In this document: piece after piece, positions 41,489-55,209 of the stretch | Position numbering within the stretch: position 1 is the first letter of the stretch | Layout of the letters: every line of letters begins with the position of its first letter | Source of the DNA: Spirochaetia bacterium | GTDB taxonomy: Bacteria; Spirochaetota; Spirochaetia; DSM-2461 | Length of the DNA: 64,000 bases | Direction: 5' to 3' | Assembly: GCA_963666985.2 (NCBI GenBank) | Contig: CAXXIA010000002.1 | Location: 832,001 to 896,000, forward strand | The notes under the pieces: generated by a model | Databases searched by the model: none | Seen by the model: the letters and a program-made list of their open reading frames with translations, nothing else | Told to the model about the DNA's origin: nothing | Translations under genes and position numbers: made by a program

Positions 41489-42217
41489 ATGGGAGTATTC
41501 AGCCGATTAGGAGACATCATCAACGCCAACATCAACGCGATGCTGGACAAAGCGGAAGATCCCGAGAAGATGATCCGCTTGATGATTCAGGAAATGGAGG
41601 ACACCCTTGTGGACCTCAAATCTTCCTGCGCGGCCAAGATGGCCACCAGGGCCGAGATGGAGAGGGACAGGGACACCCTGGAAGCCAAGATAACCCGCTG
41701 GAGTGAACGCGCCGTCCTGGCGGTGGAACGCAAACGGGACGATCTGGCCAAGGAAGCGCTTCTTGAAAAAAAGCAATGCGTCACTCAGCTCGAATTCGCC
41801 GAGAAGGATTTGATTCACTATGATGAACTGATTCGCGACTGTAAGAGCAACATCGCGCAGCTTGAACAGAAGCTTGAGGAAGTCACCCTGAAGCACAAGA
41901 TGCTCGTTCAGCGCAGCATCCATGCCGCCGAAAAGAAACGCGCCCGGACGGCTATGTCCGCGGCCAGCGGCGCCCAGGCCATGATGCGGTTCGGAGAACT
42001 GGAAAACCGTATTGAACGCATGGAAGCCGATGCCGAACTTTCCGGACGCTTCGGTGATTCAGGCAGCGATTTGGAACGTGAATTCGACAAACTCGAATCC
42101 GACAATGTCATCGAGGAAGAACTCGCGGCCTTGAAGAAAAGCATGAATAAGAGTGCCGGGAAGCCAGCCGGCAAGGAGGCGGCCGCGAAGGATTCGGCCG
42201 AGAAGAGCGATGGTTAA
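41489..42217 (+). CDS. pspA: Phage shock protein A
   Basis: 'MGVFSRLGDIINANINAMLDKAEDPEKMIRLMIQEMEDTLV'; coiled coil. Confidence 0.96.
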   Translation: MGVFSRLGDIINANINAMLDKAEDPEKMIRLMIQEMEDTLVDLKSSCAAKMATRAEMERDRDTLEAKITRWSERAVLAVERKRDDLAKEALLEKKQCVTQLEFAEKDLIHYDELIRDCKSNIAQLEQKLEEVTLKHKMLVQRSIHAAEKKRARTAMSAASGAQAMMRFGELENRIERMEADAELSGRFGDSGSDLEREFDKLESDNVIEEELAALKKSMNKSAGKPAGKEAAAKDSAEKSDG

Positions 42218-42404
42218 ATTCCTGGGGATTCTGCTGATAATTCTCGCTCCTCTTCTGTTTATTGCCGTATCGATAGGTCGCAGATTGGAGACGAGTGATG
42301 TTAAGATGGAAAGAGATCGGGCCATAAGAGACGGAATGGATGCCCTGAAGCGAAGAGTGTTGAACCTGGAGAAACTCCGGGGCATGCGCAGGGAGAGGAG
42401 TTGA
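42210..42404 (+). CDS. pspB: PspB-like small membrane protein
   Basis: N-terminal TM followed by 'LKRRVLNLE'; between pspA and pspC. Confidence 0.7.
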   Translation: MVKFLGILLIILAPLLFIAVSIGRRLETSDVKMERDRAIRDGMDALKRRVLNLEKLRGMRRERS

Positions 42405-42409
42405 CAATC

Positions 42410-42760
42410 ATGGCAGGGCGATATGCCGGCGGAAAAAAACTGTACAGATCCAGAAGCGGCGTGTTTCTGGGCGTATGCAAAGGCATCGCCGAGTGGGGAG
42501 ATTTTTCGGTTGAAATGGTTCGCATCGGTTTCGTGGTGCTCTGTGTTTTCGCCGGACTTCCTCTCTGGGTGTACTTCATCCTGGCGCTGATTCTTCCCGT
42601 AGAGCCCGAAGCTTACGACGGACGCTATCATGAACGCCCCCGAAGAGATGACGACATCCACGCCGATTTCGAAGACCTGAAAGAACGGGTCCGGAAGATG
42701 GAAGACGAAGAGTTCGACAAGGAACGTGACTGGGAAGACCGATTCCGCAAAGGACGGTAG
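42410..42760 (+). CDS. pspC: PspC domain protein
   Basis: 'KLYRSR...LGVCKGIAE', TM, 'YFILALILP', C-terminal coiled coil. Confidence 0.9.
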   Translation: MAGRYAGGKKLYRSRSGVFLGVCKGIAEWGDFSVEMVRIGFVVLCVFAGLPLWVYFILALILPVEPEAYDGRYHERPRRDDDIHADFEDLKERVRKMEDEEFDKERDWEDRFRKGR

Positions 42761-43899: not shown

Positions 43900-44469
43900 T
43901 CAGCGTATTGCCCTTATACTCTCCAGAAATAAACCCAGAGCGAAAGCTATCAATCTTACAGTTAAAAAAATGACTACTATCTGAAGCAAAGTCATTTTTG
44001 TACATTTCTTTGCAAAGAAAGTCTCAACCAACAATCGAAGAATTAAAGAAATATATTCAGAATATGAAGGAAGCAGCCAAATCGGTATGAGAATAACACT
44101 GTATGAAATACTAATTACATGAGCTATTGCTTCATGTTCATCTCGATTAAAGAAAAGTTTGAAAAGTATATTCCTGATGCCAACTCCTATAAGCAAACTG
44201 ATTGAAGCAAAAAAATTTGCTCCTATCATTACAATACAAAAGAGAATCAAATAGATAATAATCGGATCACCTTTTGCGAGATGTACTAAAAGAGATATTG
44301 CAAAAGAAAGTCTCATTATTAAGGAAAAAACCAGAATACGGGATTCACGGAGCAGCTTCGGTGTTGAATGAAATCGAATCCTTTGGGGATTTGCTATCGA
44401 AGCAAGTATAATTTTCGCCGGGAGAATAGAGTTTCTAAAAAATATTCTATTTATCATTTCATAACACAT
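43900..44469 (-). CDS. Hypothetical AT-rich membrane protein
   Basis: Several hydrophobic segments; start uncertain. Confidence 0.55.
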   Translation of the reverse strand: MCYEMINRIFFRNSILPAKIILASIANPQRIRFHSTPKLLRESRILVFSLIMRLSFAISLLVHLAKGDPIIIYLILFCIVMIGANFFASISLLIGVGIRNILFKLFFNRDEHEAIAHVISISYSVILIPIWLLPSYSEYISLILRLLVETFFAKKCTKMTLLQIVVIFLTVRLIAFALGLFLESIRAIR

Positions 44470-44756
44470 CCTGAATTGTTGCTATATGATACATTAATTC
44501 CTCAATTATTTACGAGCAATTGGATATATATGAACGTCTTTATTGGCACGTAAGCAGCAGTACCTACGAATATAGGATTCCCCGATTGCTTTCTTGCCCT
44601 ATCACACTGCTTTTAGAAACACATCTGAAAGATGTCTGAACAAGGAAAATTTGAACAAAACCCCGAACCCTACTAAACACAGTTAGAGGCCGGGGCACAT
44701 CAATAGCTGTTAAACGAAGTATGAAATGCATATACATCTGGAAGATGTAAAGCTAA

Positions 44757-45455
44757 TCAGGTTTCTCTATAGAAGGATTTATTTTCCAATCTGGATACCT
44801 GTCTGAATATTACATACAGACCTGAAATTATGAGCATGAAATCAATTTTCGCTCCAAGCCTCATTATCCCGAAGAAACCAAAATAGAGTGTTATACATGC
44901 GGTAAATACTTCTAACATCGCAAGGCCTGGTCTCGTTGAAAAAATAAGCAACCCGCAGATTGTAATTAATGTTGGACAGTTAATAATTCCTAACGGAGAA
45001 TAAAAAAAGGCATTTATCCAAACAGGTTCCTCAATCCAGTGTAAATAGTAGAAACCTATGGCAAGTGAAAGAAATGCAATGATTTTACCCAATGCTCCAA
45101 CATTGGAAATATCAAATGACATTTCCTTCTTGATTAGAGGTACCAATGAAAGAGTGAAGATGGCTCCAAAAACAATTATGTTGGGAATAATTCGATATTT
45201 GAACGCCAAGAGCGTTGCTGAGCCGGATAAAATCAAAATCAGCAATGAAAATAAAATGTTTCTTGTTTTCTTTACGAAAAGCCCAACAACAAAGACTATC
45301 AGGAATACACAATGCATTATCAATGCAATCTGCTTTGTTTCTGATGCTACCGAACTCAAACTCACTATTAACTCTTGAGGGGTTTTAACAAATGTCAGAA
45401 AGAACACTATGAGAGAAAGAAATAGCAAAATAAGATATTTGTATTTGTTTTTCAT
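44757..45455 (-). CDS. Hypothetical polytopic membrane protein
   Basis: About 7-8 TMs, 'SPLGIINCPT'; RBS AAGGAG. Confidence 0.8.
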   Translation of the reverse strand: MKNKYKYLILLFLSLIVFFLTFVKTPQELIVSLSSVASETKQIALIMHCVFLIVFVVGLFVKKTRNILFSLLILILSGSATLLAFKYRIIPNIIVFGAIFTLSLVPLIKKEMSFDISNVGALGKIIAFLSLAIGFYYLHWIEEPVWINAFFYSPLGIINCPTLITICGLLIFSTRPGLAMLEVFTACITLYFGFFGIMRLGAKIDFMLIISGLYVIFRQVSRLENKSFYRET

Positions 45456-45592
45456 TAATAGAACTCCTTGAAATTTAATTTTGGATACTGTTTCTGTTCC
45501 TGTTTTCTACAATTACTGTTTGGGATTAAAAAAGCTGTGTCATTTAAATGTCTCCTGTCGCACCTCCTTTTATTTATCCAAATATACAAGTT

Positions 45593-45610
45593 TACAACTA
45601 GATACTTGTA
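45593..45610. promoter_or_regulatory. Putative ArsR operator, copy 2
   Basis: TACAACTAGATACTTGTA upstream of membrane-protein gene. Confidence 0.55.
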
Positions 45611-45626
45611 TAGAAAAAGAAAAAAA

Positions 45627-45962
45627 TTAACTACACTTATCGCAATCCGGGTATTTCCCGCAATCAATGCATTTTTCAAAGGCCATATCGAATAATTTAT
45701 TGAAATCGTCCTTCATCTTTCTGAAGGCCTTTAAATCAAGGTGATAGTACATATGATTACCCTGCCTTTCCGAATAGAGAAACCCTGCCATTTTCATCAG
45801 TTTCAGCTGCTGTGACGCCGCTTGCTGTGAGATTCCTACATAGTTTGCAAGATCATTGACACAGAGTGAGTCTACGGTATTCGACGCAAGCAGCTTTATG
45901 ATTTTCAATCTTGTCTCATCTCCGAGTATTTTTAGGCGTTCAACAGCTTTCCTATCCAACAT
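45627..45962 (-). CDS. ArsR/SmtB-family regulator
   Basis: 'LGDETRLKII', 'LCVNDLA', 'SQQAASQQLK', 'ERQG..MYY'; Cys-rich tail 'CIDCGKYPDCDKC'. Confidence 0.92.
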   Translation of the reverse strand: MLDRKAVERLKILGDETRLKIIKLLASNTVDSLCVNDLANYVGISQQAASQQLKLMKMAGFLYSERQGNHMYYHLDLKAFRKMKDDFNKLFDMAFEKCIDCGKYPDCDKCS

Positions 45963-45970
45963 GCACCACC

Positions 45971-45990
45971 ATACAACTATTTAATTGTAT
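45971..45990. promoter_or_regulatory. Putative ArsR operator, copy 1 (autoregulatory)
   Basis: ATACAACTATTTAATTGTAT palindrome 8 bp upstream of arsR start. Confidence 0.6.
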
Positions 45991-46179
45991 ACTTGTTACC
46001 CCAAAAATGTCCAGATAAAAACAAAGATATGCAGCCATGCAAGAGATTGAAGAATCTACGAGCATTATGGCTTTCATATATGAAATTAACCGTTTTCTGG
46101 CTTTCTCAAACCCTTTGCTAACACAGATAACACGATTCACGTTCGATTATGGTGATATCCACTGTATAAGGAGACACAT

Positions 46180-47652
46180 ATGAAGAATCGTGTCGTTATT
46201 CTTTTTACCGCCCTTTTCATCGCTCTGGCGGTACCGGGCGCCCTTTTCGCCAACGGCGTCGAAGATGCCTCGGACACCATGGAAACGGCTCAGGCCAAAT
46301 ACGTTTTCCTCTTCATCGGAGACGGTATGGCTCTGCCGCAGATTTCGGCCACGGAAGCCTATTTGAACTATCAGAACAGCTCGAACGCCGGCGTTAGACT
46401 TTTGGCCATGAGTCAATTTCCCGCACAGGGACTCACTACCACCTATTCGGCCGACCGCTTCATCACCGATTCGGCCGCCGCCGCCACGGCCATTGCCTGC
46501 GGCCAGAAAACCAACACCGGTGTGATCGCCATGAACTCATCGGCGACGGTCGGTCTGAAAACCATTGCCGAAATGGCCAAAGAGGCCGGCATGAAAGTCG
46601 GGATTCTTTCCAGCGTCAATCTGGATCACGCTACTCCGGCTTCCTTCTACGCCCACTTCAAAACCCGCAACGACTATTACGAAATCAGCCGTCAGATGGC
46701 AAACAGCGATTTCGATTACTTCGCCGGCGGCATGGTTCGACTCGACAAAACCCCCGAAGGTCAAAAGAACGCCATCGACATGATGAAAGACAACGGCTGG
46801 GAAGTCACCACAACGCGTTCCCAGCTGAATACGCTTCAGCCTTCGGATAAACAGGTTTACGCCTACTATGCCACCAGCTTCACCCGCAACTCCATCGACT
46901 ACACCCTCGATCAGGAAAGCGACGATATCACCCTGGCCGAATACACCAAAAAAGGGATCGAGCTTCTGGATAATCCCAACGGATTCTTCATGATGGTGGA
47001 AGGCGGAAAAATCGACTGGGCCTGCCATGCCAACGACGCGGGTTCCTCCATCGGCAATACCATTGCTTTCGATGACGCCATTAAGGAAGCCGTCGCGTTT
47101 TACAACCGGCATCCGGATGAAACCCTCATCGTCGTTACCGGCGACCACGAATGCGGCGGTTTAACCCTGGGATTCGCCGGAACCCAGTACGATTCGGCCT
47201 TCGCCGATATCGGCAAACAGAACATGAGTTACGAAGCGTTCGACAATTTCGTCATCAAACCCTTCAGGGCCGACAATCCCAACGGATCTCTCGCCGATCT
47301 GCTGCCGGAGATTGAAAAAGGATTCGGCTTAACCAATCTTTCCGATTACGAAATGCAGCTTTTGGAAACAGCATTCGAAAATACCATGCTGGATAAGAAA
47401 GAACGCGCCAAGGATGAAGCCACATACCTGAATTACGGCGGATACGAGCCTCTTTCGGTAACCATCACCCACATTCTGAACAACCGGGCCGGGCTGGCCT
47501 GGACTTCCTATTCCCATACAGCCGTTCCGGTTCCCACCTTCGCCATGGGCGCAGGACAGTCGCTGTTCAACGGCTACTACGACAACACCGATATCTTCAA
47601 GAAAACCGCCGCCGTTATGGGACTCGGCCAAGCCGTTTCCATGGCCCGCTAA
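46180..47652 (+). CDS. phoA: Alkaline phosphatase (PhoA family)
   Basis: 'FIGDGM', 'TDSAA' (Ser nucleophile), 'HATPA', 'VEGGKIDWACHAND', 'GDHECGG', 'YDNTDI'. Confidence 0.93.
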   Translation: MKNRVVILFTALFIALAVPGALFANGVEDASDTMETAQAKYVFLFIGDGMALPQISATEAYLNYQNSSNAGVRLLAMSQFPAQGLTTTYSADRFITDSAAAATAIACGQKTNTGVIAMNSSATVGLKTIAEMAKEAGMKVGILSSVNLDHATPASFYAHFKTRNDYYEISRQMANSDFDYFAGGMVRLDKTPEGQKNAIDMMKDNGWEVTTTRSQLNTLQPSDKQVYAYYATSFTRNSIDYTLDQESDDITLAEYTKKGIELLDNPNGFFMMVEGGKIDWACHANDAGSSIGNTIAFDDAIKEAVAFYNRHPDETLIVVTGDHECGGLTLGFAGTQYDSAFADIGKQNMSYEAFDNFVIKPFRADNPNGSLADLLPEIEKGFGLTNLSDYEMQLLETAFENTMLDKKERAKDEATYLNYGGYEPLSVTITHILNNRAGLAWTSYSHTAVPVPTFAMGAGQSLFNGYYDNTDIFKKTAAVMGLGQAVSMAR

Positions 47653-47687
47653 GAAACAGACGGCTCATTAAAACTCTTGGTATCTTG

Positions 47688-47717
47688 AGTGGGGCCCCTT
47701 TCGGGGCTCCGCTTTTT
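47688..47717 (+). terminator. Terminator-like hairpin after phosphatase gene
   Basis: AGTGGGGCCCC-TTTC-GGGGCTCCGCT-TTTT. Confidence 0.65.
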
Positions 47718-47733
47718 CCATTGGAAGACAAAC

Positions 47734-48918
47734 ATGCCGAATGTCAAAAAAACAGACAAGCAAAACATCATTCTTACCGCCGTTCTGGCGCTCTTAACCA
47801 TTGCCGTTTTCTTCATACCCACTCATTTCGGTTCACCCGCAACTGTGAAAACGATTCGCTCCAAAGCGAAAATCATTGAGGTTGACAACAGCACCATTGA
47901 ACAATGCGGCATCGTTATAACCGGCGATCAGGGACTGACCTTTAAAATCATGAACGGACCGTTCAAAGGAACCGTTTTGGAAGGCAACAATCTTCTCATG
48001 GGGAAAATGGACATCGACAAGCTTTTCGATGTCGGTGACAAGGCCCTTGTTACTCTGTATGTGGATGATGCTGTCGAACGGATTCTCTCCAATCAGGTGG
48101 TTGATCACTACCGAACCAATATCGAACTGATTCTGCTGGTTCTTTTTGCGGCCATGCTTATCGGTTTTGCGGGCTGGACCGGTGTGAAAGCACTGCTTTC
48201 CTTTATTTTTACGGCGGCGGCCATTTGGAAAATTCTCATTCCCGGATTGCTGACCGGGATTTCCCCGATGCTTCTCTCTTTGGCCGTCGTCAGTATCATG
48301 ACGGCGGTTATCGTTTTTCTGGTCGCCGGGATTTCCCGAATGGGCGCGGTGGCGTTTCTGGGGGCCATGTCCGGCATCGCCGTTACCGCCGTTTTATCAC
48401 TCACCTTCGGCCGGGCCTTTAAAATTCATGGTGCCGTAAAACCCTTCGCCGAAACTCTGCTTTATTCGGGTTATCCGACTCTGAACCTCACATCCATTTT
48501 CTTATCGGGAATTTTCATGGCCGCATCCGGAGCCGTTATGGACATCGCCATGGATATCGCCGCTTCAATGAGGGAAGTAAAAGACAAGCATCCGCTCATC
48601 ACGCGATCCGAACTCATCCGCTCAGGCTTCAGAGTGGGCCGGGCCGTTATCGGCACAATGACCACGACGCTGCTGCTGGCCTATTCGGGCGGATACACCT
48701 TCATTCTGATGGTCTTCGTAGCTCAAGGAACACCGCTTGTGAATGTCTTTAACATCATCTATGTGAGTTCGGAGATTCTCCACACCATCGTGGGCAGTTT
48801 CGGTTTGGTTCTTGTGGCGCCGCTGACGGCCCTTATCGGAGGATTCCTCTATTCGAAGGAACAATCCCCGAAGAGCGGCATTGAGGCCGTCATTCCAAAA
48901 AAAAGAGCCGGCTCTTGA
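47734..48918 (+). CDS. YibE/F family membrane protein
   Basis: 'SGAVMDIAMDIA', 'VIGTMTTTLLLAYSG', 'GSFGLVLVAPLT'. Confidence 0.88.
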   Translation: MPNVKKTDKQNIILTAVLALLTIAVFFIPTHFGSPATVKTIRSKAKIIEVDNSTIEQCGIVITGDQGLTFKIMNGPFKGTVLEGNNLLMGKMDIDKLFDVGDKALVTLYVDDAVERILSNQVVDHYRTNIELILLVLFAAMLIGFAGWTGVKALLSFIFTAAAIWKILIPGLLTGISPMLLSLAVVSIMTAVIVFLVAGISRMGAVAFLGAMSGIAVTAVLSLTFGRAFKIHGAVKPFAETLLYSGYPTLNLTSIFLSGIFMAASGAVMDIAMDIAASMREVKDKHPLITRSELIRSGFRVGRAVIGTMTTTLLLAYSGGYTFILMVFVAQGTPLVNVFNIIYVSSEILHTIVGSFGLVLVAPLTALIGGFLYSKEQSPKSGIEAVIPKKRAGS

Positions 48919-48985: not shown

Positions 48986-51136
48986 TTATAAATGCACCCC
49001 TCCATACCATTTCAGAGTTCCGGCCCAGCCGTTTTCTCCGTCCCAGCGGGTTCCGCCGTCGAGTAAAACGCTCTCGTGGTTCCAGGGCGATTTCACCGTT
49101 AAGCCGAAACCGGTATAAACACCGAACTTCTTTCCAAAGCCCGCCGTAACACTGAAAGTTGGAACGGTAAAGACGTTGTCCAAGGTTTCTTCCATGGTAT
49201 CGTACATATTATAATCCGCGAGGGCCGTTCGAAGGTCATACTCGAATTCCAAATACACCGGCCGAAAGGTTGCCCGCAGACCGATACCGAATCCGAAAAT
49301 AAGCCCGTCGCTGTCCCAATTCCATTGATCAAAACCGAAGATGAACCGGGTGTAATAGTACCGGTTTCCGGTTTTCACACTCAGATACTGACGGTTGCCC
49401 TGCTCATAACGGAAATCCAAATCAAGAATACCGTTCTTGGAGATGTTCACCAAACCGATGGGGAAAGCCCGCATGTCCTCGGAATAGTTAATCAGTCCCA
49501 CCAGGACGCCATGGGAAGTTTCGGAGACGTTAATCAGACCGATTTGCGTTCCGTCGAGCTCTCCGCATCGATTGAGAAATCCCGAAATCTGCGCTCCGGT
49601 AATCGATCCTTCGGCAAGATTCAGAAAGCCGGCGACCTTGCATCCTTTCATATCGCCCCGGACACTGCCGTAGAATCCCGCCGCCTGCACTCCTTCGAAC
49701 GAATCGTCCGCGGAAACGAAAATTCCGGCGGCCTGTACTCCCGTAAGAGGCCCTCCCGTGCGGGCAAAAATTCCGGCAGCCTGAACGCCCGAAACCGAAC
49801 CGGCCGTTTCCGCGAAGAATCCCGCCGCCTGCACTCCCGAAAGAGGACCTAAGTTTTTCGCTCCGAAATTGGCTTGCTGTATACCTTCAACGCCTCCGGC
49901 GGTCATGGACATGAAGAGAGCCGATTGAACGCCCTGAATTCCCCAGGCGGATGCGATGGGCAAACCGAGCTGGAGGTTCACAACGGCTTCGGAAACGTTC
50001 GGGAAACTCAGCGACGGGAAAATGCCTAAGGAGGCGACCACTTCCTTGCGTTCTGTTTCCGGTTCCTCGCCGCGGAATTGCGTATACTCAGGCCTAACCC
50101 GGGAAAAATCATCGCCGTCAACCATCGTCGGAACACCCCGCTGAAGAGAAACCGCTCCCGAATATCGGGTTTCATCCCGCATAACCACGACATCGTAGGC
50201 TCCCGGCGGCAGGGCCATCACCACTTCTTCCTCGGATCTTTTATTAATCTCGGCGACAAGAAGTCCCGTATTATCGCGGACGGCGATACGCCCGCTTAAT
50301 GAAGAAGCGAAAATCATCGATGCGGTGGGGCTGCTTAAATCGGTAAGAACCAAATCGCCGGTGCCGGTAAGCCGAATGTCGTAAGCCGGATGCTGTGGAC
50401 CGCCGAGAGTTTTTTCGGTCCGGGCAAGAGTTTCCGCATAGGTATGCTGGTATATCTCGTTCAGCGTTACGCGGCCGTCGCGGGTGGTATCCGCCGCGCC
50501 GCGAAGCCCGCTTACAAGATAATGGGTAAAAAACGATCCCCCGATGGCGTCCGATTCCTGACTCACCTCATCCGCGGAGCTGGAGGTTAGAAACGCATGC
50601 CCCTCCATTCGCGAGGAATCATCCATAAGGAACGGGGCCCTGCGGATTCCGCCCTTCTCCCGGGTGAACGCGCCCGAAGCGCAGGAATCAAGGATGGCGA
50701 CCAGAACGTCCGCGTCCAGGTTTTCCAGCCGATCCCGAAGACGGCCGTAGGAATACCGCTCTTCTCCGAGCATCAGGCCGTTCTCGTCGGAATGCCCCGA
50801 GTAATAGAACACCACTTCCGTCCTGCGGGCATTCCCCGCCTCGCCGATATTGCGTTCCATCACGGAAAGGGCGCCGTCCAATTCCTCAACATCCGGTTCA
50901 AAGAGAATCACTTCATCCTGAGGCGCCACGCCGCCGAGATCTCCCAGCGTTCGGGACATGGTAACAACATCGTCATCGGCGTACATCAGACGCATCCGGC
51001 CTGTTCCGCCGTTGTTCGAGGCGACATAGAGTCCGAATCTGCGAACCGACAGTTCCTCGGCGCTCTGCGCGATCAGACCCGATGAGGTCAGAATCAAGAT
51101 TAAAATCGGTAAAATACGTTTTCTCTTCATGTTCAT
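48986..51136 (-). CDS. Exported caspase-family (C14) protease with 16-aa surface repeats and probable C-terminal beta-barrel
   Basis: Signal peptide; 'RLMYADDD'; His in 'YYSGHS' (50792-50794), Cys in 'LDSCASG' (50681-50683); 'SFFTHYLVSGLRGAAD'; GVQAAG repeats; amphipathic beta C-terminus. Confidence 0.88.
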   Translation of the reverse strand: MNMKRKRILPILILILTSSGLIAQSAEELSVRRFGLYVASNNGGTGRMRLMYADDDVVTMSRTLGDLGGVAPQDEVILFEPDVEELDGALSVMERNIGEAGNARRTEVVFYYSGHSDENGLMLGEERYSYGRLRDRLENLDADVLVAILDSCASGAFTREKGGIRRAPFLMDDSSRMEGHAFLTSSSADEVSQESDAIGGSFFTHYLVSGLRGAADTTRDGRVTLNEIYQHTYAETLARTEKTLGGPQHPAYDIRLTGTGDLVLTDLSSPTASMIFASSLSGRIAVRDNTGLLVAEINKRSEEEVVMALPPGAYDVVVMRDETRYSGAVSLQRGVPTMVDGDDFSRVRPEYTQFRGEEPETERKEVVASLGIFPSLSFPNVSEAVVNLQLGLPIASAWGIQGVQSALFMSMTAGGVEGIQQANFGAKNLGPLSGVQAAGFFAETAGSVSGVQAAGIFARTGGPLTGVQAAGIFVSADDSFEGVQAAGFYGSVRGDMKGCKVAGFLNLAEGSITGAQISGFLNRCGELDGTQIGLINVSETSHGVLVGLINYSEDMRAFPIGLVNISKNGILDLDFRYEQGNRQYLSVKTGNRYYYTRFIFGFDQWNWDSDGLIFGFGIGLRATFRPVYLEFEYDLRTALADYNMYDTMEETLDNVFTVPTFSVTAGFGKKFGVYTGFGLTVKSPWNHESVLLDGGTRWDGENGWAGTLKWYGGVHL
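49431..49946 (-). repeat. Protein-level ~16-aa tandem repeats (GVQAAGxF.. / GxQIGLxN)
   Basis: About 10-11 units within the caspase ORF, resembling spirochaete surface repeats. Confidence 0.8.
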
Positions 51137-52008
51137 GGTGCTTTTCGTATCGTTATCACGGTTATACCGGTTTTACCGACCGGATTGAGAATACTTACAT
51201 CAGGCAAAGAATCACCCCGATGGAAGCCCGCCAGCAGCGACTCGGCATCCGCAATGGGAAAAGAGCGATCGGACCATATCAGCGCGAATGCCTCGAAATC
51301 CGGTGCGTCGTCGAGTTCGTATGCATAAGGCAGAAGCTTTTCCCCGCCCATTCCCAACGGCACGGAATCCTCGCCGTCGGATGGCCAGTGCCGCGTTATA
51401 ATGCCGTTCCCATCCACGGAAACAATGGTTCCCCAGCAATCATTCCCGCCGAAGTATCCCACTTGAAGCAGATCATGTTCACCGGCGAGGTCGCCGGATT
51501 TCATCAGTTCCGCTCCATCCGGTCCGTCTTTGTACAGAATGAGTTCGGGAGACGCCGGAAAATCGGGTCTGTCGATTCCCTTGGGGCGCAAGATTTCGGC
51601 CGGCTCACTGTGGGAAGACTGCGTGCTCAAGCGCGGCAGAGCGATCAATACGGCGGCGGCCAATGCGGCCGCGGCGGCCAAGGGAACGATAACGCGAACC
51701 GGTCGAAATCGCCGGGACTCCGCGCTTTCGGCGGCCGCATCCCTTACGGTCTTATCCCTCTCCGGCCGGTTTCTCCCGGGGGCCCGGCGCCGGAGATCTT
51801 CACCGTTCCGGTTTTCTCCGGCCGCGCGGTTCAAAATGGCCCGAACCATATCGGCGGCCGGATACTGTTCCAGAATCTCTTGATCCGATTTATCCAAGGC
51901 GGCCATCCGGTTTTGAAAATCAGGTTCGGCTTCCAATTCACCGCGTTCCGATTCGGTAAGTTCGCCGAGACGGCAGCGCTCATAAGTCCATTCGCTTTTT
52001 TTGCTCAT
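51133..52008 (-). CDS. Single-TM anti-sigma-like protein with extracytoplasmic DUF4384-like domain
   Basis: Start ATG 52008 overlaps sigma stop; N-term 'ERCRLGEL..E'; TM 'VIVPLAAAAALAAAVLIAL'; 'DLLQVGY..SVDGNG..LPYAYELDDAP'. Confidence 0.72.
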   Translation of the reverse strand: MSKKSEWTYERCRLGELTESERGELEAEPDFQNRMAALDKSDQEILEQYPAADMVRAILNRAAGENRNGEDLRRRAPGRNRPERDKTVRDAAAESAESRRFRPVRVIVPLAAAAALAAAVLIALPRLSTQSSHSEPAEILRPKGIDRPDFPASPELILYKDGPDGAELMKSGDLAGEHDLLQVGYFGGNDCWGTIVSVDGNGIITRHWPSDGEDSVPLGMGGEKLLPYAYELDDAPDFEAFALIWSDRSFPIADAESLLAGFHRGDSLPDVSILNPVGKTGITVITIRKAP

Positions 52009-52493
52009 ATTCCGCCTCCTTTCGCCATTTTTTTCCCGTCGGCCCTGAGTTTCCTCAATCTTTTTCGCACGCCGGAGACCGACATTCCGGTGGCGGCGGC
52101 GGTTTCCTCCAGGGTGAATCCGTCGCGGTAATGCAGAAGCGCCATGGTCTTGGTGGACGGCGGCTGCTCTTCGAAAAGCTTCTCCAGAAACAGCTTGTCC
52201 ATCGTTCGCCCCTCGTGGTCCTCGGTACCGGCCATCGCGGAAAGCCATTCGTCGTCAACGGCGATAACCTGACGCCGGAAAGACCGCATGACATTCAAAC
52301 AGGTATTTGTGGCCGTCACGTACAGGAAGCTTGAAAGACCCGTTTCCTTAATTTTCTCTTCATGACGCAGCAGCTTCACAAAGACATCCTGCATGGCATC
52401 CAGAGCGGCCTGTTCCTCCCGCAGCAGGCTGCGGCACCTCCTGAGGACCATCGGTCCGTACGTGATGTAGAGCTGTTCGATGTCGACGGCCAA
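52005..52493 (-). CDS. ECF RNA polymerase sigma factor
   Basis: Region 2 'AALDAMQDVFVK..SFLYVTATNTCLN'; region 4 'DGFTLEETAAATGMSVSGVRKRL'; 162 aa. Confidence 0.92.
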   Translation of the reverse strand: MAVDIEQLYITYGPMVLRRCRSLLREEQAALDAMQDVFVKLLRHEEKIKETGLSSFLYVTATNTCLNVMRSFRRQVIAVDDEWLSAMAGTEDHEGRTMDKLFLEKLFEEQPPSTKTMALLHYRDGFTLEETAAATGMSVSGVRKRLRKLRADGKKMAKGGGI

Positions 52494-52561
52494 AGGGCGC
52501 TCCGATAATCCTTAAGTTCACTCACCCGGCGCCCGGCTCTAACCGCCGAGCACCGGGAAGA

Positions 52562-53143
52562 TCAGTTGAATGCGAATCCGAGGGAGAATACAGCCTCGAA
52601 TTCATCAAATTCCGGGTAATCGATATCCGAGCAGGGAACCCCCGCTCCCGTGGGCCGCCAGTTGAACTGTCCCGAGGCGTAGAGGCCGCCTCCGAAATGC
52701 AGCCCCACTCCCGTACCCAGATAAGGGTACATAACGGCGGCCACTCTCCGCACATCCCCGCAATCCTCTTCGCTGCACGGGGTGCACTCCACTTCCGCTT
52801 CTCCGGCGGCACCGAGACCGGCCTGAATGAACGGATCGATAAAAGCGCGGCGGTCACGGAAATGATAGCTCAAAAACATCCGGCCGTCCCAGTCTATGAA
52901 CCAATAGTCGTCGGATGTTTCTTCACAATGCACCAGAGCCGTTATACCGATGCCGACATGATCGAACAGAACCTCAAGGCCGATGCCTCCGAGATGGTCG
53001 ATGTCCTTGCCGTTATAAGCCGCGGAAACAACTTTCTGCTGATGATCCTGCATGGCCCATTGACCCGTTAAACGAATCTGCTGACCGAAAAGACCGGCCG
53101 TGCCGATGCCGATAAGCATGATGAATATCAGTAAGCGTCTCAT
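52562..53143 (-). CDS. Hypothetical outer-membrane beta-barrel-like protein
   Basis: Signal peptide; 'DPFIQAGLG', 'PYLGTGVGLHF', C-terminal 'FSLGFAFN'. Confidence 0.7.
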   Translation of the reverse strand: MRRLLIFIMLIGIGTAGLFGQQIRLTGQWAMQDHQQKVVSAAYNGKDIDHLGGIGLEVLFDHVGIGITALVHCEETSDDYWFIDWDGRMFLSYHFRDRRAFIDPFIQAGLGAAGEAEVECTPCSEEDCGDVRRVAAVMYPYLGTGVGLHFGGGLYASGQFNWRPTGAGVPCSDIDYPEFDEFEAVFSLGFAFN

Positions 53144-53195: not shown

Positions 53196-53224
53196 AGACA
53201 CCTCACGGCGGTACATGTGTTACC
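53196..53224 (-). promoter_or_regulatory. Candidate ECF-type promoter
   Basis: Minus strand GGTAAC-N18-TGTCT upstream of the OMP-sigma-anti-sigma-caspase genes. Confidence 0.35.
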
Positions 53225-53403
53225 GTCGGGAAGAAAAAAATGGAAAGGATAAGAAAGGGATTCTTAAGGCGGTGCCGGTTGGAACCGTAGATGATCGTAT
53301 AAAACTATGAAGCGAAGTTATCGGCGCCGATGCGTTCTTTCAACAGCCGACCGGTGACAGATACAAAACTCTATTGGGTTATATACTATCGATGGAGATA
53401 AAT

Positions 53404-54237
53404 ATGAAACGCGCCGCGACCTTTTTCATGCTGTTCCTGACGACAACAATCATGCTCTTCGCTTCGGGCTCGGAAGAACCCGATGCCGACGGCTGGTATG
53501 AAGTACCGCGCCTCCGGGATTTCAGCGGAGTGCAGCTCAGAACCGACGCCGAACTGACGCTCGTTCCCGGCAGAGGGTATCGCGTCCGGGTTAAGGGCGA
53601 TCATCATGATATCGAAGATTTGGATATCTATGTTTCCGGAGATGATTTGATTATCAAAAGAGAAAGTCTTTTCTCTTTCTTCAACTCATCGAATACGGGT
53701 TTGGAAATAGAGGTAACGCTCCCCAAGCTTTCCCGCGCCGAAATTACCGCTTCCGGCTTTATGAAAAGTACAGGCTTGTTCGAATCGGGCGACTTGGAAC
53801 TGCGAACAACGGGATCCGGAGACATCGTTTTTGAAGCCATCGCCGATTCGCTCGAATGCCAATCAACAGGATCGGGCGACATCGAATATCGAGGACGGGC
53901 CGATTCTCTCGCTATACGGTGTACGGGATCGGGAAGCGCCGAAATGGAAGTCAGAGCCAATCTTGTGGATATTTCATTGACCGGATCCGGGAACGCGGAA
54001 TTACGGGGCGGGGCCGATCGGATGGATGTCCGTATTACCGGAAGCGGTAAACTTAAAGCGGAAGAATTTCCCGTCAGGAATGCCGATATAACACTGACCG
54101 GTTCCGGCGATGCCGAAGTGCGTGTTTCCGGTAACCTCAAGTGCCGAACAACAGGATCGGGATCGGTCTATTACGGCGGCAATCCCGAAAATCTGGATTT
54201 TCAGGGCGGCGGTTTAGGGAAGATTCAAAAGCGATAG
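53404..54237 (+). CDS. Head GIN / DUF2807-like exported beta-repeat protein
   Basis: Signal peptide; repeated 'TGSG' about every 19 aa; terminal 'GSVYYGGNP'. Confidence 0.85.
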   Translation: MKRAATFFMLFLTTTIMLFASGSEEPDADGWYEVPRLRDFSGVQLRTDAELTLVPGRGYRVRVKGDHHDIEDLDIYVSGDDLIIKRESLFSFFNSSNTGLEIEVTLPKLSRAEITASGFMKSTGLFESGDLELRTTGSGDIVFEAIADSLECQSTGSGDIEYRGRADSLAIRCTGSGSAEMEVRANLVDISLTGSGNAELRGGADRMDVRITGSGKLKAEEFPVRNADITLTGSGDAEVRVSGNLKCRTTGSGSVYYGGNPENLDFQGGGLGKIQKR

Positions 54238-54303: not shown

Positions 54304-55209
54304 TCAATACTCCCGGTCGCCCCGGATAACCCCGATAAGCTCCACTTTGGATCTGACCGAAAGCTTTTTATAAACATTGGCCACATGATTTCTGACGGTA
54401 TTGGGACTGATTCCCAAATTCTCGGCGATCTCCCCGTACGTAAGTCCCTGAACAAGATTCATCGCGATATCACGCTCACGATCCGTTAAAGGCAATTCAT
54501 CCGGGAGTTCTTTTTGTTTCTGACAATCAGGTTCGGGAGTGCCCATCTCCCGCAAGTAAAACACAATCCCCGTTATCGCCATCCACAGATAATAGAGAGA
54601 GAAAAAGAGAAACCGTATGGATCGGCTGACGGACCAGGGAACATCAACCTCCGCGAGGATGCGGCCGGCCATAACCAAAGGCAGAAAAGCGACGGTCAGA
54701 AGGGTAACCGATAAAACCGTAATCCGTGTGGTTCCTCGGCGAATCTGCGGCAGACTCCGGACAATATCCGATAAAATAACGGCCAGAGCCAGAAAATAAA
54801 TGAATGCCGCGGCCAATGAAATCTGTTTAAGAAATCCCGTTAACAGATAAACCGCACCCAGGGCAAAGTAGACCGCCGACGCGATAACGGTCGAAATCAG
54901 CCCCAGCCTGTTCCACTTCCTTCCGATAATATGATTAATCGTAGCCGGGAGATAATAGAGAAGCAGCGCGTAGCCCGCAAACTCCGCCAAACCCGTCCCG
55001 ATAATTACGGCCCGGCCGCCGTTGAGCAGCTCACTCCAATAAAAGCGGATACCGGCCAAAAGAAGCAGAAGCGCCAGATACGAGATAAATAAAAACGTGT
55101 TGAATCTTCCGGAGTTTTTCTTTCGCAGCCAGTAAAGGAGACTCAAGGCAACCGCCGCGAAAGTCATACCTACGGTAATAATATACAAAAAAAGGAATAT
55201 ATGATCCAC
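54304..55209 (-). CDS. Membrane-bound LuxR-family regulator
   Basis: About 7 TMs then 'LTDRERDIA...GLTYGEIAENLGISPNTVRNHVANVYKKL'. Confidence 0.88.
   Translation of the reverse strand: MDHIFLFLYIITVGMTFAAVALSLLYWLRKKNSGRFNTFLFISYLALLLLLAGIRFYWSELLNGGRAVIIGTGLAEFAGYALLLYYLPATINHIIGRKWNRLGLISTVIASAVYFALGAVYLLTGFLKQISLAAAFIYFLALAVILSDIVRSLPQIRRGTTRITVLSVTLLTVAFLPLVMAGRILAEVDVPWSVSRSIRFLFFSLYYLWMAITGIVFYLREMGTPEPDCQKQKELPDELPLTDRERDIAMNLVQGLTYGEIAENLGISPNTVRNHVANVYKKLSVRSKVELIGVIRGDREY

Follow-up and report, generated by a model that had tools for sequence, protein, structure and literature searches.

A sigma factor, a membrane anti-sigma candidate and an outer-membrane-anchored orthocaspase encoded as a trio in a Spirochaetia bacterium

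Described relatives and linkage of the trio

Sigma-70 and metacaspase genes in one conserved operon were reported in 2012 from Myxococcus xanthus DK1622, Anaeromyxobacter, Haliangium, Sorangium, Ralstonia and Fibrobacter (Asplund-Samuelsson 2012, PMC3501461), an arrangement shared by the locus analysed here. This locus is a trio of genes for a sigma factor of the extracytoplasmic function (ECF) type, a candidate anti-sigma with a single transmembrane (TM) helix and an exported orthocaspase. It lies in a 64,000-nucleotide stretch of a Spirochaetia genome (contig CAXXIA010000002.1, positions 832,001 to 896,000; hereafter, the window). The papers cited were available in part, and our statements about them hold for the parts available. 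A preliminary description of this DNA knew of no mechanism described for such trios, but DdvA/DdvS of M. xanthus is already the subject of a published proposal along closely similar lines (PMC11506125), and the sigma/metacaspase operons had been noted in 2012. DdvA/DdvS resembles our trio in having an ECF sigma, a single-TM anti-sigma and a periplasmic caspase-fold His-Cys protease proposed as the site-1 enzyme, which would cut a linker near the TM helix before RseP acts.

Other systems resemble the trio in part. Cell-surface signalling of the FoxA/FoxR/FoxI and FecA/FecR/FecI type (PMC11637429) also combines an outer-membrane protein, a TM anti-sigma and an ECF sigma, with outer-membrane receptors in the regulon, and cleavage can separate the periplasmic domain at the N-terminus from the barrel. 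In type III-E CRISPR, the caspase-fold protease Csx29 cuts the sigma-binding protein Csx30 within a linker (Csx29/Csx30/RpoE; bioRxiv 2022.08.17.504292). The SAVED-CHAT/PCaspase/PCc-sigma/PCi system of Haliangium (bioRxiv 2023.06.23.546230) encodes a cleavage-activated C14 caspase alongside a sigma and a small partner. Sigma group ECF25 (Casas-Pastor 2021, PMC7826278) has a single-TM anti-sigma in the +1 position, carrying a zinc domain and/or DUF4384, and its taxa include Spirochaetes, Deltaproteobacteria and Fibrobacteres. Our literature search found no study of the trio's own mechanism; most subscription journals lay outside its reach, so absence from print is not established.

The trio is real and widespread, and we read it as a variant of protease-gated ECF signalling whose mechanism is uncharacterised in the literature searched. 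We think it rather probable that it works as a cell-surface-signalling-type system, one whose outer-membrane protein bears a self-processing caspase as a built-in site-1 protease.

The four minus-strand open reading frames (ORFs) of the operon lie where the preliminary description placed them (Table 1), and both gene overlaps (52005-52008 and 51133-51136) read ATGA. A longer, 371-aa reading of the anti-sigma from 52248 was ruled out, given that homologs start at the ATG overlapping the stop codon of the sigma gene.

Table 1. Positions, in the window, of the genes, predicted promoters and predicted cleavage sites discussed
Feature	Position	Strand	Remarks
First gene, small exported beta-barrel-like protein	52562..53143	-	193 aa
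ECF sigma factor	52005..52493	-	162 aa, TTG start
Anti-sigma candidate ("ActD-like")	51133..52008	-	291 aa
Orthocaspase/outer-membrane protein (OMP) fusion	48986..51136	-	716 aa
Exported DUF2807 (GIN-head beta-helix) protein	53404..54237	+	PF10988, E 1.3e-49; divergent from the operon
Predicted ECF promoter GTAACA-N16-GTGTC	53197..53223	-	Before the four-gene operon; rank 3/18
Second predicted promoter GTGACA-N16-GGGTT	53354..53380	+	24 nt before the DUF2807 start; rank 4/18
R141-P-K143-G144 codons	51577..51588	-	Anti-sigma linker; predicted site-1 cut after K143
T158-R-E-K161-G162 codons	50651..50665	-	Caspase; predicted self-activation site after catalytic Cys152
R355-G356 codons	50069..50074	-	Caspase; predicted release site from the outer-membrane anchor

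We examined linkage in 140 loci, comprising 60 from genomes and 80 of 297 confirmed metagenome matches. The sigma gene is directly upstream of the anti-sigma gene in 136 of these, the four misses being contig ends, and the caspase gene is directly downstream in 126 of the 140 anti-sigma loci. Among the 14 loci without a caspase, 13 end within 263 nt, and the remaining one (L113, in G073:C5) has a related sigma and an anti-sigma with the same N-domain, but with a tetratricopeptide repeat (TPR) C-terminus replacing the immunoglobulin (Ig)-like domain and with neither the K-G motif described below nor a caspase. Two loci (L060 and L191) have broken caspase genes, and an apparent anti-sigma/caspase fusion in L112 was ruled out, as it spans an N gap in the assembly. 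One genome (G285) holds four copies of the trio.

Searches from the two sides gave the same answer. An anti-sigma profile matched 47 of 301 genomes of the phylum, one of them weakly and at the N-terminus, and an independent search of these 301 with the caspase domain hit exactly the 46 with a strong anti-sigma match; all 50 caspase places in those 46 genomes adjoin anti-sigma places. The linkage assumed in the preliminary description is therefore strict (126/140 loci; the same 46/301 genomes from both sides), and these comparisons of sequence support the view that sigma, single-TM partner and caspase are inherited as one unit, linked far above chance. A genome-contig scan with the single sigma as query returned only three loci, one of them a true trio. 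Six further Peptidase_C14 matches lie in the host genome on the same contig, and the four fetched as loci had no match to this sigma or anti-sigma.

The 291-aa anti-sigma has matches in 15 of 41 related genomes and in none of the 13 others of its genus. At E<=1e-30 its profile matched 2,341 of 1.84 billion representatives (50% identity), and the source names of homologs cover Spirochaetota, Myxococcota, Deltaproteobacteria and FCPU426, to which Atlas neighbours add Fibrobacterota. No relatives of the trio were found in the viral contigs and plasmids searched. Anti-sigma homologs are named ActD or anti-sigma RsiW; ActD belongs to the developmental act operon of M. xanthus. Our literature search on ActD found nothing, and the link made here is through the source names of homologs only. 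The preliminary description suggested that similar trios may exist in myxobacteria, which Myxococcota source names (ActD / caspase family) and the 2012 operons (PMC3501461) support. Judged by those names rather than by sequence, the 2012 operons very probably belong to the same family as the trio.

The protease, its partner and three basic-Gly sites

The caspase matches Pfam Peptidase_C14 at residues 48-253 (E 1.1e-8, above cut-off) and also has an LA_2272 repeat match. Its structure model (mean pLDDT, a per-residue confidence score, 91; pTM, the global score, 0.55, so that domain orientation is uncertain) contains a signal peptide, the caspase domain (31-266), a beta-sandwich (273-347), a flexible linker (352-360), a beta-helix made of the LA_2272 repeats (365-566) and an 8-stranded barrel (570-715). 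The domain closest in fold to the caspase is AtMC4 (Z 21.0, root-mean-square deviation [rmsd] 2.9, 208 aligned), and that closest to the barrel, which is of the OmpA type, is the N-domain of OprF (Z 13.9, rmsd 3.1, 118 aligned). The protease thus has an orthocaspase/metacaspase (C14) fold with a His-Cys dyad, which is intact, as first reported, at H115 (SGH) and C152 (DSC) and invariant in 97 aligned relatives. The signal peptide also reported was judged present from hydrophobicity and the model (helix 8-20) rather than from a SignalP-type tool, and 113 of 115 caspase relatives have an N-terminal hydrophobic stretch (15 duplicate, cut or mis-started loci dropped). Acidic residues D56 and D150 are invariant across the 97 caspases, as in Arg/Lys-specific metacaspases, which suggests that this enzyme would also cut after Arg or Lys.

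Both ends of such a barrel usually lie in the periplasm. In the model, the long loops between strands 3-4, 5-6 and 7-8 mark the expected outer side. The repeats precede strand 1 of the 8-stranded barrel, whose N-terminus the model places inside, so both they and the protease probably sit in the periplasm rather than at the cell surface. The preliminary description had the repeat/barrel region sense a surface signal; the repeats are probably not the surface sensor but a periplasmic stalk of about 6 nm, with an estimated 12-13 rungs. A surface-displayed, autotransporter-like protease acting outside the cell could be argued for from the beta-helix, which resembles two-partner secretion (TPS) and autotransporter passengers, and from NCBIfam, which names the repeats surface repeats. 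However, the same barrel and loops put the N-terminus inside, and we regard this possibility, taken together with that of an anti-phage or cell-death module (see below), as very improbable.

The protease is constant and its anchors are swappable: among 79 complete caspases, the C-terminal modules fall into groups of 45, 17, 7, 5, 3, 1 and 1, with types that include OMP_b-brl and CsgG-like/Kelch. In L093, L094 and L095 (genomes G285 and G266), CsgG-like and Kelch modules take the place of the anchor. In Bacteroidota, the same module of repeats and 8-stranded barrel carries STN and CarboxypepD_reg domains (e.g., P0241, P0249, P0251, P0278 and P0283), and these STN proteins are possible TonB-independent transducers.

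The sigma is a minimal ECF factor with regions 2 and 4 only (Pfam Sigma70_r2, E 2.5e-12; r4_2, E 6.4e-6; TIGR02937 above cut-off). In the model of its partner, a helical N-domain (6-74) and the TM helix (107-127) precede a linker that is disordered (128-146) and a domain with an Ig-like fold (149-291); 126 of 128 relatives have one TM helix. The single-TM protein of the preliminary description therefore has, in the model, the anatomy of a membrane anti-sigma: a helical cytoplasmic domain, one TM helix and the +1 gene position. A Pfam scan gave it no match, PF14326 (DUF4384) included, although DUF4384 matches weakly in 10 of 63 relatives and occurs on 24-33% of members in Atlas neighbour clusters. 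Neither the caspase nor the anti-sigma profile had a sequence match in the PDB; with the anti-sigma model, Foldseek returned nothing at E<=0.001, and the matches from VIA were all generic Ig-like folds, with a top Z of 8.7.

Three basic-Gly sites occur in the two proteins (Table 1; the counts exclude exact duplicates and nine loci that were cut or mis-started). In the anti-sigma, K143 is present in 132 of 132 sequences, G144 in 130 and R141 in 122; K143 lies a median of 17 residues from the TM helix, at a site with pLDDT <50. In the caspase linker (n=97), K161 is invariant and G162 is present in 98%, and at the third site R/K355 occurs in 96 of 97 caspases and G356 in 95. All three sites are in or beside segments that the models give with low confidence and that are probably flexible. 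A T-R-hydrophobic-K-G (T-R-x-K-G) consensus is common to the anti-sigma and the caspase linker (108 pairs). For comparison, R-x-K-G occurs 47 times in 192,650 residues of neighbour proteins and before one of 30 unrelated DUF4384 domains. The dipeptide [RK]G stands before the beta-helix in 53 of 58 relatives with a caspase versus 2 of 39 with STN/CarboxypepD, so that the third site goes with the protease-bearing forms.

Known enzymes offer a parallel. In AtMC4, Asp137, two residues before Cys139, holds a linker lysine, and self-cleavage there activates the enzyme; D150 and C152 have the same spacing here. The orthocaspase MaOC1 self-activates after Arg219. The shared motif suggests that the protease would cut its own anti-sigma, as the preliminary description proposed: a candidate cut site common to both proteins supports that proposal, while its sigma binding and its cleavage remain predictions. 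Release at R355 would presumably make K143 easier to reach for a protease otherwise fixed to the outer membrane. Complex prediction with caspase 24-360 and anti-sigma 126-291 scored 0.22 against a mark of 0.32 and is not used as support.

We infer the catalytic and binding steps, and the signal, as follows. At rest, the helical N-domain of the partner would hold the sigma, and the caspase would be a tethered zymogen. A trigger at the outer loops of the barrel, with a barrel-clustering ligand or envelope damage as candidates, would be followed by self-cleavage after K161 (activation) and after R355 (release from the anchor). The freed protease would cut the anti-sigma after K143, removing the Ig domain, and RseP, which has a homolog in the host genome, would then cut the TM stub and free the sigma. 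Transcription by the sigma would then cover its operon along with genes for small barrels, TonB-dependent receptors and ExbB and, in this window, for the DUF2807 protein.

Several observations weigh against this scheme. The 140 loci are kin-related, were chosen via the anti-sigma and include near-duplicates, so their counts are not independent. All 14 control genomes have RseP as well, which makes finding it here hardly informative. Binding of the sigma by the N-domain is proposed from position and modelled fold, and the zinc motif HxxxCxxC (ZAS, zf-HC2) is absent from this anti-sigma, with CxxC in only 2 of 128 relatives. Three of the 79 complete caspases end in CsgG-like/Kelch modules without a recognisable barrel, and only 35 of the 79 have a C-terminal Phe. 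K-G or R-G occurs near 14 of 30 other DUF4384 domains, which makes the comparison with those domains an imperfect control. Covariation at P3 is not significant: the caspase linker follows a missing P3 Arg of the anti-sigma in 3/9, versus 17/99 (p=0.36). Finally, K161 ends a modelled helix (155-161) rather than lying in a fully disordered loop.

The conserved motif could also reflect mutual restraint. The T-R-x-K-G of the anti-sigma would then be a bait or docking site, and the caspase domain, perhaps released at R355, would bind and shield the anti-sigma until a signal broke the contact and a general protease (e.g., Prc) made the site-1 cut. There are precedents: the signalling domain of the Fox receptor binds and protects the anti-sigma without signal and is itself cleaved off (PMC11637429), and PCi both inhibits PCaspase and is cut by it (bioRxiv 2023.06.23.546230). 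The caspase also occupies the position of STN in the Bacteroidota relatives. However, the catalytic dyad is invariant in 97 relatives, and Gly at P1' together with a membrane-proximal flexible linker suits genuine cleavage, so we consider this alternative unlikely and prefer cleavage by the caspase.

Predicted promoter, regulon and neighbouring genes

Inspection by eye of the DNA upstream of neighbouring barrel genes revealed a GTRACA-N16-GTGTT motif. Loci totalling 1.03 Mb contain 124 copies, compared with 26-33 in five Markov controls, and the motif lies within 230 nt upstream of the sigma, on either strand, in 64 of the 103 loci with enough upstream DNA; the motif was derived from the same loci, making this enrichment partly circular. 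Genome-wide, a stricter pattern was found in 34 of 45 genomes with the module versus 45 of 255 others, with 80 matches in the module genomes versus 12 for a reversed control. A matrix trained without the window gave 18 hits in the host genome, which include the two predicted promoters of Table 1, both absent from the preliminary description. The rank-2 site is inside a gene. The rank-1 site (G000:C2:776253, plus strand) has, within a few bases, a short uncharacterised signal-peptide-like frame, a possible further regulon member. The motif is partly palindromic, but the operator of a dimeric regulator is disfavoured by its fixed spacing, its orientation towards genes and its occurrence in sigma-bearing genomes. 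A sigma-70 promoter/terminator scan stayed at chance level.

Among the loci, 41 other sites have a downstream ORF, and 33 exported-looking genes were compared. In 17 of the 33, the gene behind the site encodes a relative of the caspase anchor from its own locus, with no protease attached, and these 17 cover three unrelated module families; the remaining targets are small barrels like the first gene, TonB-dependent receptors, and DUF2807 and TSP3 proteins. Of 55 further sites fetched, 39 have an ORF with a ribosome site, and these include seven TonB-dependent receptor-like genes, three ExbB, four anchor-module relatives and, once, the sigma itself, the rest being mixed and partly chance.

The first gene of the operon was called OMP-like in the preliminary description. 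Its ESM Atlas neighbours (at 0.97), with OMP_b-brl on 46-66% of members, support this but fall short of proof, and its 193-aa product had no match in the Pfam scan. The family adjoins the trio in 12 loci, in either orientation and behind a predicted promoter, and the gene is probably a regulon member outside the core trio. For this window, we rejected the idea that it copies the barrel of this caspase, there being no similarity between the two. The DUF2807 gene is also a probable regulon member, and DUF2807 genes adjoin the trio in L083, L119 and L124 as well.

Because the predicted targets are TonB-dependent receptors, ExbB and barrels, and no defence gene was matched, the output appears to be outer-membrane uptake and envelope composition rather than defence. 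An anti-phage or cell-death role draws on DdvA/DdvS and PCaspase/PCc-sigma, which are defence systems. However, PADLOC matched none of the four operon genes nor the DUF2807 gene, which agrees with the CRISPR independence proposed at the outset. Across 13 window proteins, it gave only a helix-turn-helix match of a LuxR gene, with no cas, CD-NTase or SAVED/CARF match. No cas family or cyclic-oligonucleotide-based anti-phage signalling system (CBASS) family was recognised by eye among the 28 largest neighbour clusters.

The regulon also bears on whether the caspase is an output or maturation enzyme. In that case the sigma would induce it for the processing of envelope proteins, or it would cut the anti-sigma constitutively to a mature two-chain form, with the signal read elsewhere. 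Its gene is last in the operon, behind the sigma's predicted own promoter, and most predicted regulon genes encode outer-membrane proteins, often copies of the caspase anchor module; constitutively self-cleaved anti-sigmas such as RsgI also exist. Against this, the order of sigma, anti-sigma and caspase is fixed while other targets move, flip or vanish, and the anchor is exchanged, as sensor domains are, between modules of at least five families. We therefore hold this explanation to be quite improbable and retain the signalling role.

More tentatively, and at somewhat less than an even chance, the trio may represent a class of receptor proteases that resembles death-receptor/initiator-caspase signalling, with gene control as its purpose. 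The caspase zymogen, fused to an exchangeable sensor in the outer membrane, would activate and release itself at basic-Gly sites, cross the periplasm and cut the anti-sigma where this carries a copy of the enzyme's activation motif, and the induced genes would often include a protease-free copy of the sensor, acting as an effector or a signal-damping decoy.

The remaining neighbours are as follows. An alkaline phosphatase gene and then a YibE/F gene (46180-48918, plus strand) are convergent with the caspase gene and are not among the listed recurrent neighbours of the trio. A multi-TM LuxR-type regulator (54304-55209, minus strand) is convergent with the DUF2807 gene and has no homolog in the other loci. 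Further away, a phage-shock-like operon (41489-42760, plus strand) encodes PspA (E 5.6e-38), an 83-aa membrane ORF without a Pfam match and PspC (E 9.4e-17). The segment 43790-46000 is AT-rich (35% GC in 44001-46000), holds two membrane-protein ORFs and was possibly acquired; it also holds a 111-aa ORF that we take to be ArsR-like.

Significance and comparison with known systems

Most discussion of caspase homologs in bacteria concerns roles in death or defence. If the proposed mechanism is true, a large family would give caspases a signalling role as dedicated site-1 proteases, the step that the work on DdvA did not prove. With cut sites, promoter and regulon predicted exactly, the question is directly testable, and an orthogonal set of protease, sigma and promoter would be a usable part for synthetic biology.

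In the text available, the 2012 operons (PMC3501461) were noted without an anti-sigma, barrel anchor, cut site, promoter or mechanism. DdvA (PMC11506125) differs from the trio in that a TPR-CHAT protease is fused to a zinc-binding anti-sigma and controls a defence island, and its autoproteolysis is described there as not demonstrated. Here, separate genes encode a C14 orthocaspase on an outer-membrane barrel and an anti-sigma with no zinc motif.

Compared with the Fox and Fec systems, the trio has no TonB-dependent barrel, plug, STN or FecR domain, and its periplasmic domain is a protease. None of its proteins has a Pfam match to STN, FecR or a receptor, and the barrel has 8 strands. The PCaspase system (bioRxiv 2023.06.23.546230) is activated by a second protease and cA3, has broad specificity, is toxic, cuts the sigma itself and includes a kinase. 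ECF25 is the likeliest group for the sigma, given that the anti-sigma and taxa fit; its promoter (GGAAC/GTC, versus GTRACA/GTGTT here) differs, and a caspase is not listed in its context in the available part of the paper (PMC7826278).

Csx29 differs in being a cytoplasmic, RNA-triggered, CRISPR-bound TPR-CHAT protease, none of which applies to the trio. However, the analogy drawn in the preliminary description is strengthened by one group of Csx30 C-terminal domains, which is DUF4384 (bioRxiv 2022.08.17.504292), the family that the C-terminal domain of our anti-sigma weakly resembles.

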